64,000 bases of DNA from Paludibacteraceae bacterium (GTDB lineage Bacteria; Bacillota_I; Bacilli_A; RFN20; CAG-826): the NCBI GenBank assembly GCA_963621535.1, contig CAVFEQ010000002.1, positions 15,362-79,361 on the forward strand. Direction: 5' to 3'. Positions 5,020 through 29,258 of the stretch are shown here, one piece after another. The notes under the pieces are model-generated. The model was given only the letters and a program-made list of their open reading frames with translations. It did no database searches and was not told the DNA's origin. Every line of letters starts with the position of its first letter. Position 1 is the stretch's first letter. The position numbers and the translations under genes are program-made.

Positions 5020-5793
5020 ATGGATCGATTCATCGTTTCTTTAGCTTATAAGTACAACGGATGGGGGCTCGCTCTTTATATTCTTGTGGTCTCTCTTCTT
5101 GCGGGTTTGCTCGCCGGAATCATCGGTATTGAGCGAGAAATGAAAGGCCAGGCCGCGGGCTTGCGCACCCACGTCCTCCTTTCGGTTGGCTGCACTTTGC
5201 TTATGGTGATCTCCATTTTCGGCATTGGCATTGCCTCTGGGCAGATTGATTTATCTTCTGGCTCTATTGACGATAGCCTTCTTTCTTATGACACCTCGCG
5301 CATCGCCGCGGGCATCATCGCCGGCATTGGCTTTGTCTGCGCCGGCACGATCATCCGCACGGGGTTATCCGTCAAGGGCCTGACGACCGCCGCGACTCTT
5401 TGGGTGTGCGCTGGTATCGGCATGGCTTGTGGCTGCGGATTGGTGCTTGAGGCAATCGTGGTCGCCGCGGTTACGATGGTTCTCCTCATCGGCCTTCTTT
5501 ATATTGAGAAAGTCTTGGGAAAAAGGAGCCCCCAGGTCACCATCACCGTTCAAAAGAACGTCACCATGATAAGGGACATCCGCCAGCACGCCGACGCCAA
5601 CGGGCTGGTGGTCAAAAACATCGGCACTCACGCCAAAAAACTTGATAATGGCGAGGAAGCCATCGCCATAAACGTCTTGTTTGCTCTTCAAAGCGGGCAG
5701 GCGTCATTAGAAGAATTTTGCGAGTCTTTCGTCAGTAGAGAAGGCGTGATCTCGCTAGAGAAGCACCATTTCAAGAACCCGGTTGGGGAATGA
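5020..5793 (+). CDS. MgtC/SapB family membrane protein
   Basis: 257-aa ORF with the GIEREMKGQAAGLRTHVLLSVG motif, four or five TM helices and a C-terminal soluble ACT-like part, as in MgtC-family proteins. Confidence 0.8.
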   Translation: MDRFIVSLAYKYNGWGLALYILVVSLLAGLLAGIIGIEREMKGQAAGLRTHVLLSVGCTLLMVISIFGIGIASGQIDLSSGSIDDSLLSYDTSRIAAGIIAGIGFVCAGTIIRTGLSVKGLTTAATLWVCAGIGMACGCGLVLEAIVVAAVTMVLLIGLLYIEKVLGKRSPQVTITVQKNVTMIRDIRQHADANGLVVKNIGTHAKKLDNGEEAIAINVLFALQSGQASLEEFCESFVSREGVISLEKHHFKNPVGE

Positions 5794-5795
5794 GC

Positions 5796-6389
5796 TTAGT
5801 CTGCTATTGTCCCGCGGATTCTTTCGAATTCCTCTTCGACGGAGGTGAAATAGTAACGGGAATCTAACTCGGTGAACTTCACGCCGAAATGACCTTTGAA
5901 GATTCTTTCAAAGGTGCGCGTGAAATTAAGGAAGATGATTTCAGCGACCCTTAAAGGCGCGCATTCTTTGTTTTGCTCGGACAAAAGGGTGACGATCGCG
6001 TCAATGGTCGAAAAGGCGAGCAATCCCGCCTGATCAGAAAGCGCGTGCACTAAATCGGGTTCGCTAGGAAGGATCCAATTGTAATAATCGCGGAAGGGTG
6101 TCCCGCCTTTTTCATACGTCCCCTTATCCATGTTGAGCCTTAAGAACGTGGCTTTTTGGGCAAGGGCTTTCGCGTTGTAACTCTCGAGCAGATTCTCATA
6201 GACCGCCCGTGTGAGTTCGCTTCCGGCGTCTTCCTCGGCGAAGAGATTATCGAAGAGGTAAGACGCGGCACATAAGATATTAAGCGCCTCTTCGCGCGTT
6301 CTTTTCTGAATGTCCATCCTTAGCCAGGAAGAGGTGGAGTAGTCGAAGGTGTCAATCAACTGTTCGTAGCAATCAAGGGCTTGTTTCAT
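5796..6389 (-). CDS. Hypothetical protein, no recognisable motif
   Basis: 197-aa ORF filling the gap between flanking genes. Its composition resembles neighbouring genes and it has no recognisable domain. Confidence 0.45.
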   Translation of the reverse strand: MKQALDCYEQLIDTFDYSTSSWLRMDIQKRTREEALNILCAASYLFDNLFAEEDAGSELTRAVYENLLESYNAKALAQKATFLRLNMDKGTYEKGGTPFRDYYNWILPSEPDLVHALSDQAGLLAFSTIDAIVTLLSEQNKECAPLRVAEIIFLNFTRTFERIFKGHFGVKFTELDSRYYFTSVEEEFERIRGTIAD

Positions 6390-6409
6390 GAGGATTATTC
6401 TAATGGGTT

Positions 6410-6979
6410 TTGCCTGAGGCTTATAATCCTTTTGTGAAGTATCTTATCGTCAGCGACATCCATGGATCGGAGATGGGCGGGATCCGCCTGAAGGAAGCCC
6501 TTGCTAGAGAAAAGCCTGATTGTCTAATCCTTTTAGGGGATTTGCTGCATGGGGCTTATGATTCAGATCCCTTTTTCATCATTGGCATTTTGAAAACTCT
6601 CTCCATTGGCATCTTGGCCGTCTGCGGGAACTGTGACGATCCTTATGGAGACGCCGAGGCTTTGGGAATTGAGCTCCCTGACAGCAGAGAGCTTTCTTTT
6701 CAAGGGCACTGCGTTCATTTGCAGCACCGCCCTTTCGTTGCCTCCTTTGAAGAAGGGTCCATTTTGCTTAATGGTCACACTCATCGAAAAACTCTTTATG
6801 AGGAAAACGGAGTCATTCATTGCAACCCGGGTTCACTTGCCTTGCCACGCGACGATTCGCCTTCTTATGCGACCATGGATGAGGACTCTCTTGTTTTAGT
6901 GAACGCGATGAATGGTCTTGCTATTGAAAAACTGTCGATAAATCCGAGAAAAACAAATTTGAAAATTAGTTATAACTGA
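6410..6979 (+). CDS. YfcE/MJ0936-type metallophosphoesterase
   Basis: Calcineurin-like motifs are present: LIVSDIHG, LILLGDLLHG, GNCD and LLNGHTH. The ORF-track start is TTG 6410; GTG 6434 (giving MKYLIVSDIHG) is an equally plausible start. Confidence 0.75.
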   Translation: MPEAYNPFVKYLIVSDIHGSEMGGIRLKEALAREKPDCLILLGDLLHGAYDSDPFFIIGILKTLSIGILAVCGNCDDPYGDAEALGIELPDSRELSFQGHCVHLQHRPFVASFEEGSILLNGHTHRKTLYEENGVIHCNPGSLALPRDDSPSYATMDEDSLVLVNAMNGLAIEKLSINPRKTNLKISYN

Positions 6980-23113: not shown

Positions 23114-23138
23114 AAAAAGCCCGCAAAAACGAAAAATA
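23114..23138. repeat. 25-nt repeat AAAAAGCCCGCAAAAACGAAAAATA (candidate left att-like copy)
   Basis: Matches 29218-29242 at 24 of 25 positions and 38701-38725 at 23 of 25, all in direct orientation. A 16-nt core also occurs inverted at 10988-11003. Confidence 0.85.
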
Positions 23139-23430
23139 TCTCTATTTGGCCGGGGGCGGTATTTGAGAAATTGCATCTTTTTTCCCTTTCACTGTGCGGA
23201 GAAAAGAAGCGCCTTTTGCGGACTCACTTTTTGAAACTTTTTTGTTTTTCCTCCTTCCAATGGCTAGATGAAAAAGCTGGCGGTTTTGGTGAATAGATTT
23301 TTCTGAAAACGAAAAAGCCACCATCGGCACGACAGAGTTATCAATTTTGGTATGGCAATTCGATAGACAAATTAGAGATAAAGTGATATAAAATGTTAAA
23401 CAGTGTTATTTAGGAACAAAGGTGCAAAAT

Positions 23431-23637
23431 ATGAAAATGGATTATGCTAGTGCTTTAAGGCAACTAAGGGCGGAATTGAACCTGTCCCAACATGAATTTG
23501 CTGATTATCTACATGTGTCATTCGTTTCGGTCAACCGCTGGGAAAACGGGAAATTCGAGCCTACAGTCCTCGTGAAGGAAAGGCTTAAGAAATTATTTAA
23601 GCAGTACAACATAGAATTGGAGGTAATGGATCAATGA
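23431..23637 (+). CDS. XRE-family HTH protein (controller-like), first gene of the AT-rich operon
   Basis: Carries an HTH_3 signature (LRQLRAELNLSQHEFADYLHVSFVSVNRWENGKFEP). Its stop overlaps the next start (ATGA). ATG 23431 is preferred over the ORF-track GTG 23422. Confidence 0.8.
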   Translation: MKMDYASALRQLRAELNLSQHEFADYLHVSFVSVNRWENGKFEPTVLVKERLKKLFKQYNIELEVMDQ

Positions 23638-24296
23638 AAGGCCAAGTGAAATCCAAACAAAGAGTCAGAGATCATGGGGAGGTTTTCACCAACGAGCGCG
23701 AGGTGAACGCCATGCTAGATTTAGTAAAGGATGAAACCGAAAACATCGAATCCACGTTTTTGGAACCAGCCTGTGGCGATGGCAACTTTCTTTCAGAGAT
23801 TATTCGTAGAAAACTCGCAATTGTAAAAGAAAGATACGGCAAGAATTTGGAAAATTACGAAAAGTATTCAATCGTTGCCGTCTCCTCGGTATACGGAGTT
23901 GAATTGCTGAGGGATAACGTTATTGCCTGCATCGACAGGCTGTACAATATATGGAACGATGAATACTCGGAGATTGCAAAAAAGCAAATCAACAAAGACG
24001 TCCAGAATGCGTGCAAATATATCCTCAAGAAAAATATATTGTGCGGAGATGCTTTGACCTTGAAGCAAGAAAATGGCGAACCGATCATCTTCGCGGAATG
24101 GAAGCTCGTCAGTGGTTCTATGCTCAAAAGACGTGATTATCGATTGGATCAGATTTTGGAAGCACAAAACGATACTCCGAGCCTATTTTGGTTCGCAGAT
24201 GGTTGGGAATATGATGAAGAGACAAAGGAATATATCCCTGCTCCAATAAAGGAATTCCCTTTAACCGATTTCAGAAGGGTACAAGATTATGAATAA
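23634..24296 (+). CDS. DNA-methylase-like protein with a SAM-binding motif I but no catalytic motif IV
   Basis: 220 aa. It has [17 protein letters not shown], the canonical motif [13 protein letters not shown] (nt 23763-23792), and NILCGDAL with FAEW, which resemble the GNSL and FDW elements of Eco57I/PglX-type enzymes. No NPPY or DPPY is present anywhere. Confidence 0.65.
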
Positions 24297-25842
24297 AGTC
24301 AACTACAATCCGGATGTATTATCTTGCATCGCCAATTTGAGCAACGATGAGGTTTTCACTCCGCCGGAACTCGCAAATGACGTACTTGATTTATTGCCAA
24401 AGGAGATATGGAAAGACAAAAACGCCAAGTTCTTGGATCCTTTTTGCAAATCCGGCGTGTTTCTTAGAGAAATCGCCAAAAGACTATTGGAAGGGTTAAA
24501 AGACGAAATACCAGATCTGCAAGAAAGAATCGATCACATCTTCCATAATCAAATTTATGGCATCGCAATTACCGAACTTACAAGCCTGCTTTCAAGAAGG
24601 AGCGTCTACTGCTCTAAATACCCAAACTGCAAATATTCCATTTCCAAATTCGATGATGTGGATGGCAATATTCGCTTTAAGAGAACAGAGCATACTTGGA
24701 AAGACGGCAAATGCGTTTTTTGCGGAGCTTCGCAAAAAGAATACAAAAGAGACAAAGAACTGGAGACTTATGCCTATGAGTTCATCCATACATTGAAACC
24801 GGAGGAAATATTCAACATGAAATTTGATGTTATTTGCGGCAATCCGCCTTATCAATTAAATGACGGTGGAAACGGGGCGAGTGCCATGCCTATCTATCAA
24901 AAGTTTATTCAACAGTCGATAAAATTAAAACCTAAATACCTGACAATGATAGTTCCTTCACGATGGTTTGCTGGCGGAAGAGGACTAGACTCTTTTAGAG
25001 ATGAAATGTTGCATGATAATAGGCTTCGCAAAATTGTTGACTTTCCAAACGCGGCCGATTGTTTTCCAGGAGTGGAAATTAAAGGTGGAGTATGCTATTT
25101 CTTGTGGAGTAGAGATGAAAGAGGGCTATGCGAAGTTACTACTAAAAACGGGAAAGAAAGCAACACGGCTATTAGGCCTTTGCTTGAAAAAGGATGTTCG
25201 ACTTTCATAAGATACAATCATTCCATTTCCATTTTGCAAAAAATACGTAAGTTAAACGAAAAGACTTTTAATGAACTGATTACCCCTAACGATCCTTTTG
25301 GCTATGACGTTAGAGTTGAAAATAGCTACACCAGAATTAAACCCGATATTAAAAAAGAAAAATTTAATAATTGCGTGAAGATTTATTACTATGGTTGGAA
25401 AAGAGACGGTATAGGGTACATAGATAGAAACACAGTAAGGAAAAATCTCAATTGTATCGAGGATAAGAAAATCTTTATTTCAAGAGCTTATGGTGCGGGT
25501 GAAGTTTTTCCACACCAAATTCTCGGAGTGCCGTTCATTGCCGACAAATGTTCCGTATGTACTGAAACTTATTTAATGATTGGCCCATATAAGGATGATA
25601 ATATTTTGCACAATATTTTGTCTTATATCTCAACTAAATTTTTCAGATTTTTGGTAATGTTAAAGAAAAACACGCAGAGTGCTACGCCTGCTGTGTATGA
25701 ACTAGTCCCTGTTCAAGATTTTTCTAAAACATGGACAGATGAAGGCTTATATAAGAAATACGGACTTACAAATGAAGAAATTTCATTTATTGAGTCTATG
25801 ATCAAACCCATGGATTTAAATAACCCAGCTGAGGAGGAGTGA
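24289..25842 (+). CDS. N6-adenine DNA methyltransferase, Eco57I-like (gamma class)
   Basis: 517 aa. It has [17 protein letters not shown], a degenerate motif [13 protein letters not shown] with no GxG, the catalytic [11 protein letters not shown] (NPPY at nt 24841-24852), an inserted 4-Cys cluster (C-x4-C...C-x2-C, nt 24610-24723) and a long C-terminal TRD-like region. Confidence 0.8.
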
Positions 25843-28712
25843 AAATGGCAAAAGATTTCTTTCCTCAAAAGCCAAACGCAAAACCGATGATATATGCCTA
25901 TGAAGATAGTAATCCGCAATATGCCGGCTATTTGAAAATCGGTTATACAACAATTGGAGTAGAAGAGAGGGTTAGGCAACAATACCCTACTTTGAGACCC
26001 AATGGCACAAGCCCATACAAAATCGTCTTTGCCGAATCTGCCATGTATACCGATGGCGGCAATTTCATGGACCATGACATCCATAAATATCTGGATAAAA
26101 AAGGGTTCAAGAATGTCGGTGGTGAATGGTACAAGTGCAGCGTCGATGACGTAAGGGCGGCTTGGATTGCCGTTCGCTCACATACAAAAAACGAGGAAAA
26201 CAGGACGTTGAATTTTGCCATGCGTCCAGAACAAGCAGAAGCCGTCAACAAGACAATGCTTTACTTCGACTCCGTCTATCAAGACAGAAAACACAACATA
26301 CCCAAATTTCTTTGGAACTGCAAAATGCGGTTCGGCAAGACATTTGCCTCTTATGAACTCGCCAAGAAGATGGGCATGAAGAGAATCTTGATCCTGACTT
26401 TCAAGCCTGCCGTCCAATCTGCTTGGGAAGACGATCTTAAGCAACACGTGGATTTCGAAGGATGGCAGTTCGTTTCTCGTGATGGTTTAAGATATGAAGA
26501 CGCAGATAAAGAAAGACCTATCGTTTGCTTCGGATCGTTTCAAGACTATTTAGGAATCAACAAGGAAACAGGCGGAATCAAGCCTAAAAACGAATGGGTT
26601 CATACCATCAATTGGGATTTGGTCATCTTCGACGAGTATCACTTCGGTGCTTGGAGGGATAACGCCAAAAAGCTATTTGAGAATCCTGATGACGAAAAGG
26701 AAGACGTCGATAACAGCAACCATAATGAATTGCTTGATGAGACGTGGCTTCCTATAACCACCAAATATTATTTGTATTTGTCGGGTACACCATTCAGAGC
26801 CATCAATTCCGGCGAATTCATAGAAGAACAAGTCTATAACTGGACCTATTCCGATGAACAAAGAGCCAAAGAAAACTGGAAAGGACCGGACAATCCATAT
26901 GAAGCTTTGCCACGAATGGTAATGATGACTTATGAGATTCCCGAAGCAATCAGAAGAGTTGCTATAAATGGCGAATTCAATGAGTTCGACCTCAATATGT
27001 TTTTCGAAGCGGAAGGCAAAGGCAAAGATGCACGCTTTATTTTCGAAAACGAAGTTCAGAATTGGTTGGATTTAATTCATGGTGCTTATCTTGATACTTC
27101 TATTGATGAACTGAAAGTAGGCACGAAGCGTGGGCAATCATATCTTCCTTTCAAGGAAACTGCCTTATTAAATGTTTTGAGTCATACATTATGGTTTTTG
27201 CCTAATGTGGCTTCGTGCGATGCGATGGAGAACTTGCTTAAACAAAAGCAGAACAATTTTTATCATACATACAAAATTAATAACTGCTCTGGCACGAAAG
27301 CCGGCGTCGGCCTTGATGCGTTATATCCGGTTCTCGAATCAATGGACGATCCTCTTGAATCAAAGACGATCACGCTTACATGTGGCAAGTTATGCACTGG
27401 CGTTACCGTCAAACCATGGACCGGCATATTTATGCTTCGAAACCTCTCCACCCCAGAGACTTATTTCCAATCGGCATTCAGAGTTCAGTCTCCTTGGGAG
27501 GTAAAAACCGAGACTGGAAAAAAAGAAATCATCAAGAAAGAATGCTATGTTTTCGATTTTGCTTTGGACAGGGCTTTGAAGCAAATCGCTGATTATGCGA
27601 CCAAGCTCGACATAAACGAGCCAAACCCAGAAAAGAAAGTTCGAGATTTCATCGATTTCTTACCAGTTCTAGCCTACAAAGACGGTGCGATGAAAGAAAT
27701 CGACGCAGGAGAAATCCTGGACATCGCTATGAGCGGAACTACGGCTTCTCTCCTTGCTCGTAGATGGGAGTCGGCATTGCTCGTTAACGTCGATAATGCG
27801 ACGCTGCAACGCCTCCTAAATAGTGAGCGAGCCATGGAAGTTTTGATGAAAATCGAGGGTTTCAGGAGCCTTAACAAAGACATCACCACAATCATCGCGA
27901 AATCCGAAGATGTGAAGAAGAAAAAGAAAGAACTCGAGAACCCTACGCCAAAAGAAAAAAAGCAGATCTCCGAAGAGGAAAAGGAGTTCAAAAGCAAGAG
28001 AAAAGAGATTCAGGAAAAGCTCATCAAATTCGCCACCCGCGTCCCCGTGTTCATGTATTTGACCGATTACAGGGAATATTCTCTCGAAGATGTCATCACG
28101 AAGCTTGAACCCACACTCTTCAAGAAAGTCACCGGCCTAGACGTCGATGACTTCAATTTGCTTGTTTCTCTTGGGATTTTCAACAAGCCTTTGATGAATG
28201 ATGCAATCTACAAGTTCAAGAGATACGAGGATTCAAGCCTCGAATATACAGGCATCAATAGACACGAAGGCGAAAAAGTGGGCTTGTTCGATACCGTTCT
28301 TACCAACGACGAATATAAACACTTATATGAACTTCAGCAAAAATCTCTAATTGGCAAGAAAACAGCTTATAAGCTCGAAGACTTGGCCAAAGAAAAGAAA
28401 GGCTCTGGATTTGATAAAAACGGGCATGCAGTATCTTCTCAACAGCCAACGAAATCGAATGAATCGGCCTTTGTTTCAAAACCAAGTTCGCCTTCAAACC
28501 AAAAAACAATTGTTACCAAGAAAGAAATTATCGTTGTCGATAAATCTAAAATTGTTGTTGGTGCCAAGGTTTCCCACAAAGCGTTTGGCATTGGATTTAT
28601 TACAGAGTTAAAGGATGAACTTGTCGTTGTTAAATTTGACGAATACCCAGCTGCTAAAAACTTCCAGAATCCACAAGGGTTCGAAAACGGATTCTTAAAG
28701 TTGGAGGAATAA
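25839..28712 (+). CDS. T5orf172/GIY-YIG-like domain fused to an SF2 (ResIII-type) helicase with a Tudor-like C-terminus
   Basis: 957 aa. Residues about 17-112 read [19 protein letters not shown]...DHDIHKYL...GGEWYKC, a T5orf172-like pattern. Helicase motifs are motif I MRFGKT (nt 26334-26342), motif II DEYH (nt 26631-26642), SGTP and [12 protein letters not shown]-rich linker and a C-terminal [14 protein letters not shown]...VVVKF (PcrA/UvrD CTD-like) follow. Confidence 0.75.
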
Positions 28713-29047: not shown

Positions 29048-29258
29048 AGTCTACTTTTAGTCTACTTTTAGGGTCTTTTCTTCTACTAGATAAATGGAGG
29101 CTGCAATATTCTTCCTAGTCTTTCTCTCCGGTAGCAGGCAAAGGAGAAAGTGAGTCTATATCACGGATGTGGCCTCTATAGCGATCATCCTGATTCTGGG
29201 TTGCGTTCTATGGAGCGAAAAAGGCCGCAAAAACGAAAAATAACCCTGTTTTGCAGGG
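28999..29258. repeat. 260-bp repeat element, copy 1
   Basis: Matches 38482-38741 at 259 of 260 positions. It contains four AGTCTAC heptamers at 29035, 29046, 29058 and 29069, internal hairpins, the 25-nt motif and a terminal hairpin. Confidence 0.95.

Follow-up and report, generated by a model that had tools for sequence, protein, structure and literature searches.

A small methylase homologue encoded beside rpoC in a Paludibacteraceae bacterium is very probably the M1 protein of a DrdVI-type restriction-modification system

The gene at positions 23634-24296 of a 64,000-nucleotide stretch of DNA from a Paludibacteraceae bacterium (contig CAVFEQ010000002.1; the stretch at its full length is referred to here as the window) encodes a protein of 220 residues that is almost certainly the functional M1 component of a DrdVI-type restriction-modification (R-M) system. 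In the proposed mechanism M1 would be a stand-alone, non-catalytic half-methyltransferase that binds S-adenosylmethionine (SAM), and its downstream neighbour M2 would provide the catalytic half, with the NPPY motif, together with a sequence-reading target recognition domain (TRD). The two proteins together would make up a working adenine-N6 methyltransferase in which M1 gives the canonical cofactor-binding half. The N-terminal half (N-half) of M2 is highly conserved but has diverged: its motif I contains an invariant Lys, motif III is missing and a Cys/His insertion is present. It would mainly couple the methylase to the third protein, R. By analogy with known enzymes, R would combine a T5orf172/GIY-YIG nuclease with a superfamily 2 (SF2) motor and carry out NTP-dependent restriction of unmodified DNA, much like a split Type ISP enzyme. 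The statement as a whole, that is the assignment of M1 to a DrdVI-type system together with the proposed roles of M1, M2 and R, is given a probability of roughly 0.55. A preliminary description of the window, made from the letters alone, had recognised the two methylases as a pair, which stands, and had missed both the third gene, encoding the T5orf172-helicase nuclease, and the fact that systems of this kind are already catalogued as the DrdVI type. The three genes, whose products were used as the queries S220 (M1), M517 (M2) and H957 (R), are the following.

23634..24296, + strand: M1, 220 aa, predicted N-terminal, SAM-binding half of a gamma-class N6-adenine methyltransferase; motif IV and a TRD are missing
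24289..25842, + strand: M2, 517 aa, with a Pfam Eco57I match (E 1.9e-39)
25839..28712, + strand: R, 957 aa, T5orf172 domain, SF2 helicase-like motor and C-terminal tail

The kind of system is already known from REBASE and the literature, and the copy described here is an ordinary further member of the DrdVI type. In blastp comparisons M1 shares 38% identity with M1.DrdVI across 214 aa (E 1e-46), M2 shares 48% with M2.DrdVI across 535 aa (E 4e-179) and R shares 52% with the DrdVI R protein across 851 aa (E 0). The corresponding genes on the plasmid pDrdVI of Deinococcus wulumuqiensis NEB 479 encode 212, 539 and 851 aa and follow one another in the order seen here. Papers from New England Biolabs refer to the family as 'split methylase/RM genes' and to the two proteins as M1 and M2 (PMC6430315, PMC10113651). 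M1-2.DrdVI cloned in E. coli ER2796 produced N6-methyladenine (m6A) at GCAGCC and was typed IIG (Fomenkov et al. 2019, PMC6430315), and M1-M2.MaeIV of Methanococcus aeolicus, called a 'split methylase/RM', produced m6A at GCACY (PMC10113651). Site-specific m6A from M1 and M2 is established in these two homologous systems. The R protein of DrdVI was described in a methylome paper on Bibersteinia as 'a fused translocase and REase' (REase, restriction endonuclease) with a GIY-YIG domain (PMC4996451). The cited literature on DrdVI-type systems reaches no further than the methylation motif, and literature searches on the combination of Eco57I, T5orf172 and helicase and on split SAM-binding methylases turned up nothing relevant.

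Linkage of the three genes was followed in 21 genome loci seeded with S220, from Oscillospiraceae, Peptococcaceae, Anaerolineales, Limisphaerales, Rhodospirillaceae, Rhodobacter, Chloroflexota, Phascolarctobacterium and Ruminococcus. In all 17 loci that could be judged, having sufficient DNA on the downstream side, M2 lies directly downstream and R-homologous sequence lies beyond it; the triad is intact in 15 of these and decayed in two (L010 and L022). All three loci seeded with M2 have M1 upstream, with an overlap of 8-17 nt, and a T5orf172-helicase gene downstream. Every intact homologous locus has the order M1-M2-R, the placement of M1 and its start/stop overlap with M2 recur across phyla, and the same triad occurs on the plasmids pMchErm55 of M. 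chelonae and pDrdVI. A two-gene form, consisting of M1 and a fused protein of 1437-1461 aa, is found on Lactococcus pUC047G, on an E. faecium plasmid and on a Paenisporosarcina plasmid, and in L. plantarum the upstream partner in this form is a distant M1 relative (hhalign 94%). The M2-type N-half of the fused R-M2 protein is placed between the helicase and the catalytic half. The constant co-occurrence of a 220-aa with a 517-aa type of protein, named in the preliminary description as a point to check, was found at every judgeable S220-seeded locus, at every M2-seeded locus and on plasmids. Its view of the two genes as a functional pair rather than a broken gene is upheld by this invariant linkage, by deep conservation and purifying selection (see below) and by the naming of M1 and M2 in the literature.

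M1 carries GEVFT at residues 15-19, motif I at 42-53, YGVEL at 87-91, NILCGDAL at 133-140 and FAEW at 153-156. All four SAM-binding motifs X, I, II and III (GEVFT, EPACGDG, YGVE and GDAL) are there and vary little or not at all in the family, and the protein is without any (N/D)PP(Y/F/W). The open reading frames (ORFs) and the Pfam matches confirmed what had been read from the letters, namely a 220-aa product with gamma-class motifs and no (N/D)PP(Y/F/W) that overlaps by 8 nt with an NPPY-bearing methylase of 517 aa. The match of M1 to Pfam MmeI_Mtase covers the profile only as far as position 121 of 259, short of the point where the NPPY of M2 aligns, and M1 has no TRD, the chain stopping at residue 220. 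Among 238 small homologues motif I is kept in 233 and an NPPY-like string is lacking in 237, the sole such string being located in an unrelated N-terminal extension. An alignment of 64 M1 sequences showed the SAM-contact residues G15, E16, V17, T19, E44, C47, G48, G50 and F52 to be invariant together with N134, G138 and W156, and F153, E155 and W156 of the FAEW element to be invariant or nearly so. The family comprises at least 7,942 related clusters at 90% identity, nearly all of 218-240 aa, with 60-90% identity among the best matches; an exhaustive HMMER pass yielded 3,508 clusters at 50% identity with E<=1e-3 and 371 with E<=1e-30. Relative to its nearest relative, the locus L007 (95% amino-acid identity), M1 has a ratio of nonsynonymous to synonymous substitution rates (dN/dS) of 0.056. 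A C-terminal tail, IPxPIKEYP, is conserved in M1, and many full-length forms are without it. Members of the family are named 'N-6 DNA methylase', 'DNA methyltransferase' or 'type III restriction endonuclease subunit M' by PGAP.

The AlphaFold2 (AF2) model of M1, built with the family alignment, is compact, with a predicted local distance difference test score (pLDDT) of 88.5 and a predicted template modelling score (pTM) of 0.84. Rossmann strands 1-3 are placed at residues 42-45, 86-90 and 135-139 and are followed by the FAEW hairpin at 152-170, a helix and short C-terminal strands. Foldseek matches of the model in the PDB are weak (best E 0.015, TM-score 0.37-0.40, approximately 140 N-terminal columns) and are the gamma-class adenine methylases CamA, MmeI, LlaBIII, BsaXI and BrxX. 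Because only these approximately 140 columns align, and the motif IV-VIII half of solved gamma-class enzymes has no aligned counterpart in M1, the model indicates that M1 is the N-terminal cofactor-binding half of the gamma-class fold with clade-specific additions. Sequence searches of the PDB gave motif-level matches only for M1 and M2, and no sequence-level match to any PDB chain for R.

M2 consists of a diverged N-half (residues 1-176), the NPPY motif (185-188) and a variable TRD (residues ~300-470). Its AF2 model has a pLDDT of 73, with low confidence at residues 90-200, and Foldseek matches it to CamA, BrxX/PglX and TaqI along the whole chain (best E 1e-13). Across 17 homologues the N-half is the best-conserved region, with a mean identity of 74% at residues 1-96 and 70% at residues 97-176; the catalytic half averages 61% and the TRD 29%. 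M1 and M2 are paralogous, as the shared fold signature of their N-termini had suggested; they are 47% identical over 47 aa in tblastn, and hhalign of the two family alignments joins S220 14-92 with M517 19-95 at a probability of 97.8% (E 1e-12). The two had further been described as degenerated in complementary ways, M2 having lost the GxG of motif I, and of this a part remains. The position of the canonical motif II acid is an Ala in M2, and no equivalent of motif III is detectable in the family alignment or by hhalign, but FTPP, D50, G56 and E96 are kept and invariant. E96 stands three residues beyond the canonical acid position, at the tip of a longer predicted strand 2 where model confidence is low. 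Motif I reads CKSG, with no GxG, in all 17 homologues, and a degenerate motif I in M2 is plausible. The missing GxG is nevertheless insufficient to call the motif dead, because CKSG is invariant and because M.TaqI, an active enzyme, has only the second glycine in its motif I (CAHG). Between motifs II and IV, residues ~100-176 (24586-24816) form a Cys/His-rich insertion in which C108, H135, C142, C145 and H167 are conserved among the 17 homologues and the second Cys of an apparent C-x4-C pair is not. The fused R-M2 enzymes of lactic acid bacteria do not have this insertion, which is a possible zinc site.

In R, residues 1-150 match PF10544 T5orf172, of the GIY-YIG superfamily, with E 8.9e-10, which is above the family cutoff. 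There is also a weak ResIII match and a match to PADLOC PDLC03626 (E 6e-34), and the Pfam scan found no PD-(D/E)xK family in the protein.

The relation between M1 and the catalytic half of M2 is illustrated by single-chain methylases of 450-600 aa, in which an M1-type N-half with the FxEW hairpin is followed by FDVIxGNPPY and by an M2-like C-terminal half (C-half) with a TRD. Such single chains make up 61 of the 120 best clusters found with P0155, and in P0337 a stretch matching residues 4-208 of M1 is joined to one matching residues 172-512 of M2. The single-chain orphans P0278, P0337 and P0344 have an N-half 39-55% identical to S220 and a C-half and TRD homologous to M2, and they differ from the present system in being one chain without an M2-type N-half and without an R gene nearby. 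Three of the four single-chain methylases examined in context are found among phage genes, of replication and recombination, with no R (L042:7579-9249, L037:7001-8566 and L044:8001-9527), their neighbours being VapE/SNF2/PIF1-like in one case, RusA/NrdD/DnaB/PolA/RecA in another and Gp157/ERF in the third; the fourth has no R gene downstream. The phage-borne forms are candidate anti-restriction orphans aimed at DrdVI-type systems. A reading of FAEW as a decayed motif IV did not survive the comparison, as the single-chain relatives have FxEW and in addition FDVIxGNPPY 20-60 residues further on. Since both elements are present in the same chain, FxEW is a clade-specific hairpin and no catalytic substitute.

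In a maximum-likelihood tree of the N-halves, for which bootstrap values were not fully converged, the M2 N-half forms one separate clade with 100/99 support. Free M1 and fused N-halves are intermixed, and the well-supported branches require at least 4-5 switches; M1.DrdVI groups with three fused proteins (99/89). Between this genome and L007 (7656-9158), M2 is approximately 99% identical over residues 1-188, through GNPPY, and approximately 60% identical after NPPY, with 10-30% in the TRD, M1 and R being 94-95% identical. No nucleotide similarity to L007 is seen across 25117-25844. It looks as if the part of M2 that follows NPPY, including the TRD, has been swapped as a cassette between the two genomes with a breakpoint at motif IV. 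Given the single-chain fusions, their phage contexts, the interleaving in the tree and the cassette swap, the M1-type N-half is a competent partner of an NPPY half, and the junction of N-half and C-half is a natural module boundary. What is new here is the fusion of the M1-type N-half to an NPPY and TRD half, the interleaving of free and fused forms, and the cassette swap after NPPY.

The preferred reading is that M1 serves as the canonical cofactor-binding half for the catalytic half of M2, and that the M2 N-half mainly couples to R. It is held tentatively, at slightly short of an even chance, and much the same must be said of the narrower claim that M1 is strictly required since it would supply SAM binding for the catalytic half of M2, which we regard as nearly a coin toss and a little on the doubtful side. 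Several observations weigh against this reading. The invariant FTPP, D50, G56 and E96 mean that M2 may still bind SAM, and may do so on its own. The low model confidence at M2 residues 90-200 may stem only from the shallow alignment of 17 sequences, or from the need for a partner. M1 alone was modelled as a confident compact domain (pTM 0.84), which suits an autonomous accessory subunit equally well. M1 and M2 were always cloned jointly in both published studies, and their effects were not separated (PMC6430315, PMC10113651). Finally, trans-complementation would be proved by a genuine family of C-half-only M2 proteins, and none was found. Among the candidates for such a family, P0390 and P0498 were rejected as contig-end truncations and P0428 because its locus is decayed and has an M1/M2 deletion joint; PADLOC PDLC03375 (348 aa) matches the C-half of M2 only and was not used as proof.

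In the main rival account M2 would be self-sufficient as a methyltransferase, and M1, a paralogue without catalytic activity, would have a regulatory or sensor function; by binding the N-half of M2 or the motor of R it could report SAM availability or set the balance of modification and restriction. This is a possible account, if a rather doubtful one. The invariant motif X, D50, G56, E96 and NPPY retained by M2 agree with it, as do the resemblance of the M2 model to the complete gamma-class methyltransferases CamA, BrxX and TaqI and the prediction of M1 as a compact stand-alone domain, and there is a precedent in MtsB of MANTIS, a small co-regulator needed for methyltransferase activity (bioRxiv 10.64898/2026.09.23.753747). 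However, the phage-borne orphans examined use the M1-type N-half and not that of M2, and in the phage collection the M2 N-half matched four records only, two of them whole triads and two partial matches. In addition, M2 is without the canonical motif II acid and a detectable motif III, and the SAM-contacting residues of M1 are invariant.

Further arrangements have less in their favour. One NPPY and TRD half might be served by two homologous N-halves, the free M1 directing it to methylation and the SAM-impaired M2 N-half, which in fused forms adjoins the helicase-nuclease, directing it to translocation and cleavage, so that occupancy by M1, and hence the supply of SAM, would decide at each site and phages would escape by fusing an M1-type N-half to the catalytic half; we consider this improbable. 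That M1 is itself an active methyltransferase, which would use the non-canonical motif FxEW on the second DNA strand or on a substrate other than DNA, is very unlikely. The conservation of F153, E155 and W156 and the methylase-type names given by PGAP speak for it, but the single-chain relatives have FxEW and a normal NPPY downstream, 237 of the 238 members are without an NPPY-like motif, and M1 has neither a TRD nor anything that aligned to the motif IV-VIII half (Foldseek over approximately 140 residues, TM-score 0.37-0.40). The last alternative, that the 220-aa ORF has no function and is what is left of the 5' part of a broken full-length methylase gene, which had been named in the preliminary description as the contrary outcome, is refuted by the comparative data: M1 is indeed homologous to the N-half of full-length single-chain methylases and decayed copies of the system exist (L010, L022, L040 and pTEF3), but a sporadic fragment was not seen, there being thousands of full-length homologues of equal size (~220 aa), a dN/dS of 0.056 with invariant SAM motifs, a position and M2 overlap kept across phyla, and a conserved tail, IPxPIKEYP, that is missing from many full-length forms. 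What is left of the odds falls to arrangements beyond those listed here.

Within the window, M1, M2 and R belong to a compact operon that is preceded by a gene for a helix-turn-helix (HTH) protein and enclosed by a direct repeat.

23422..23637, + strand: HTH_3/XRE protein, 71 aa, controller-like (Pfam HTH_3 E 2.3e-12; weak match to PADLOC Control_protein)
23114..23138, + strand: left direct repeat, approximately 25 nt (repeat search, family D1)
29218..29242, + strand: right direct repeat, approximately 25 nt (repeat search, family D1)

The four ORFs are co-directional and overlapping and lie just downstream of rpoB and rpoC. The stop of the HTH gene overlaps the start of M1 (ATGA), M1 and M2 overlap by 8 nt (ATGAATAA) and M2 and R by 4 nt (ATGA). 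The HTH controller has a 98.6% identical copy in the nearest relative, L007, and is present in none of the other loci compared. The repeat core AAAAAGsCCGCAAAAACGAAAAATA flanks the low-GC operon directly after rpoC, and GC content is 36-43% in the operon against 54-58% in rpoC, the drop occurring at the left repeat. The triad was not found in 12 genomes of the same genus and 8 of the same order. Because it is absent from these 20 related genomes, is low in GC and is flanked by a direct repeat, the region is probably a horizontally acquired and mobile island with att-like ends.

Complete M1-M2-R triads are also held by two phage-deposited records, PV036449.1 (NatCom_35866) and MT835565.1, the former with an excisionase gene approximately 2.4 kb upstream of the triad, and the system thus travels as (pro)phage cargo as well. 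These records had been considered as natural cases of M1 and M2 without R and were rejected as such, since both informative records carry the whole triad. In one metagenomic lineage (L001-L006) a restriction gene of the GmrSD family (Type IV) is found approximately 10 nt downstream of R, an arrangement that suggests a small defence island. In a rumen Clostridia metagenome-assembled genome (L016 4969-7783) approximately 2.8 kb is inserted between M2 and R. On pTEF3 of E. faecalis V583, positions 5053-6891 hold a decayed 612-aa remnant of a fused R-M2 protein, flanked by IS256 and IS1216, with no M1 annotated nearby.

DrdVI-type systems are very common, with thousands of protein clusters in Bacillota, Pseudomonadota, Chloroflexota, Verrucomicrobiota, Actinomycetota and Deinococcota and also on plasmids and in prophages, and the conserved half-methylase is their oddest component. 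If M1 proves to be an obligatory cofactor half acting in trans, or a switch between modification and restriction, it would represent a new way to build and control a DNA methyltransferase. The phage fusions and the exchange of TRD cassettes could be put to use in experiments and in the prediction or engineering of specificities. What is gained for the genome itself is annotation, in the form of an apparently intact R-M island beside rpoC.

Of the known defence and restriction families, MANTIS/Gao_RL, BREX, MADS and Type III were rejected as the family of the present system, with no or weak motif-level matches. The defining architecture of MANTIS consists of MtsA, MtsB and the PLD-helicase MtsD (bioRxiv 10.64898/2026.09.23.753747), and none of the MANTIS/Gao_RL parts (the DUF499 AAA+ ATPase MtsA, the DUF3870 protein MtsB and MtsD) was matched by Pfam or PADLOC in the four operon proteins. 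Type ISP enzymes such as LlaGI and LlaBIII (PDB 5FFJ and 4XQK) share the modules of the present system, that is a nuclease, an SF2 motor, a gamma-class N6-adenine methylase and a TRD, and their structures are weakly matched by the Foldseek searches with both the M1 and the M2 model. By analogy, the likely action here is ATP-driven translocation from an asymmetric site. In contrast, Type ISP enzymes are single polypeptides with an Mrr/PD-(D/E)xK nuclease and have no M1-like partner, which is established knowledge (PMC2790908), whereas here three ORFs, a T5orf172/GIY-YIG-type nuclease and an additional half-methylase are found. Even the relatives in which R and M2 are fused have a separate M1 gene and are thus not single polypeptides.

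This two-gene form resembles the present system in having an M1 homologue directly upstream, often with an 8-nt overlap as well, and a large protein whose first part aligns to R (29-33% identity) and whose second part aligns to M2 (28-34%). It differs in that R is fused N-terminally to M2, giving T5orf172, helicase, methyltransferase and TRD in one chain, in the absence of the Cys/His insertion from its M2 part and in the acidic tails of its M1 proteins. The closest likeness is to DrdVI itself, with which the motif pattern is common throughout: M1 has EPACGxGNF and no NPPY, M2 has CTKSG/CKSG and NPPY, and R has T5orf172/GIY-YIG and a helicase. The present copy is distinguished from DrdVI by an XRE-type HTH controller gene upstream, by a different TRD, by a longer tail of R (957 aa in total against 851 aa) and by its chromosomal location in an island adjoining rpoC, where DrdVI is carried on a plasmid.

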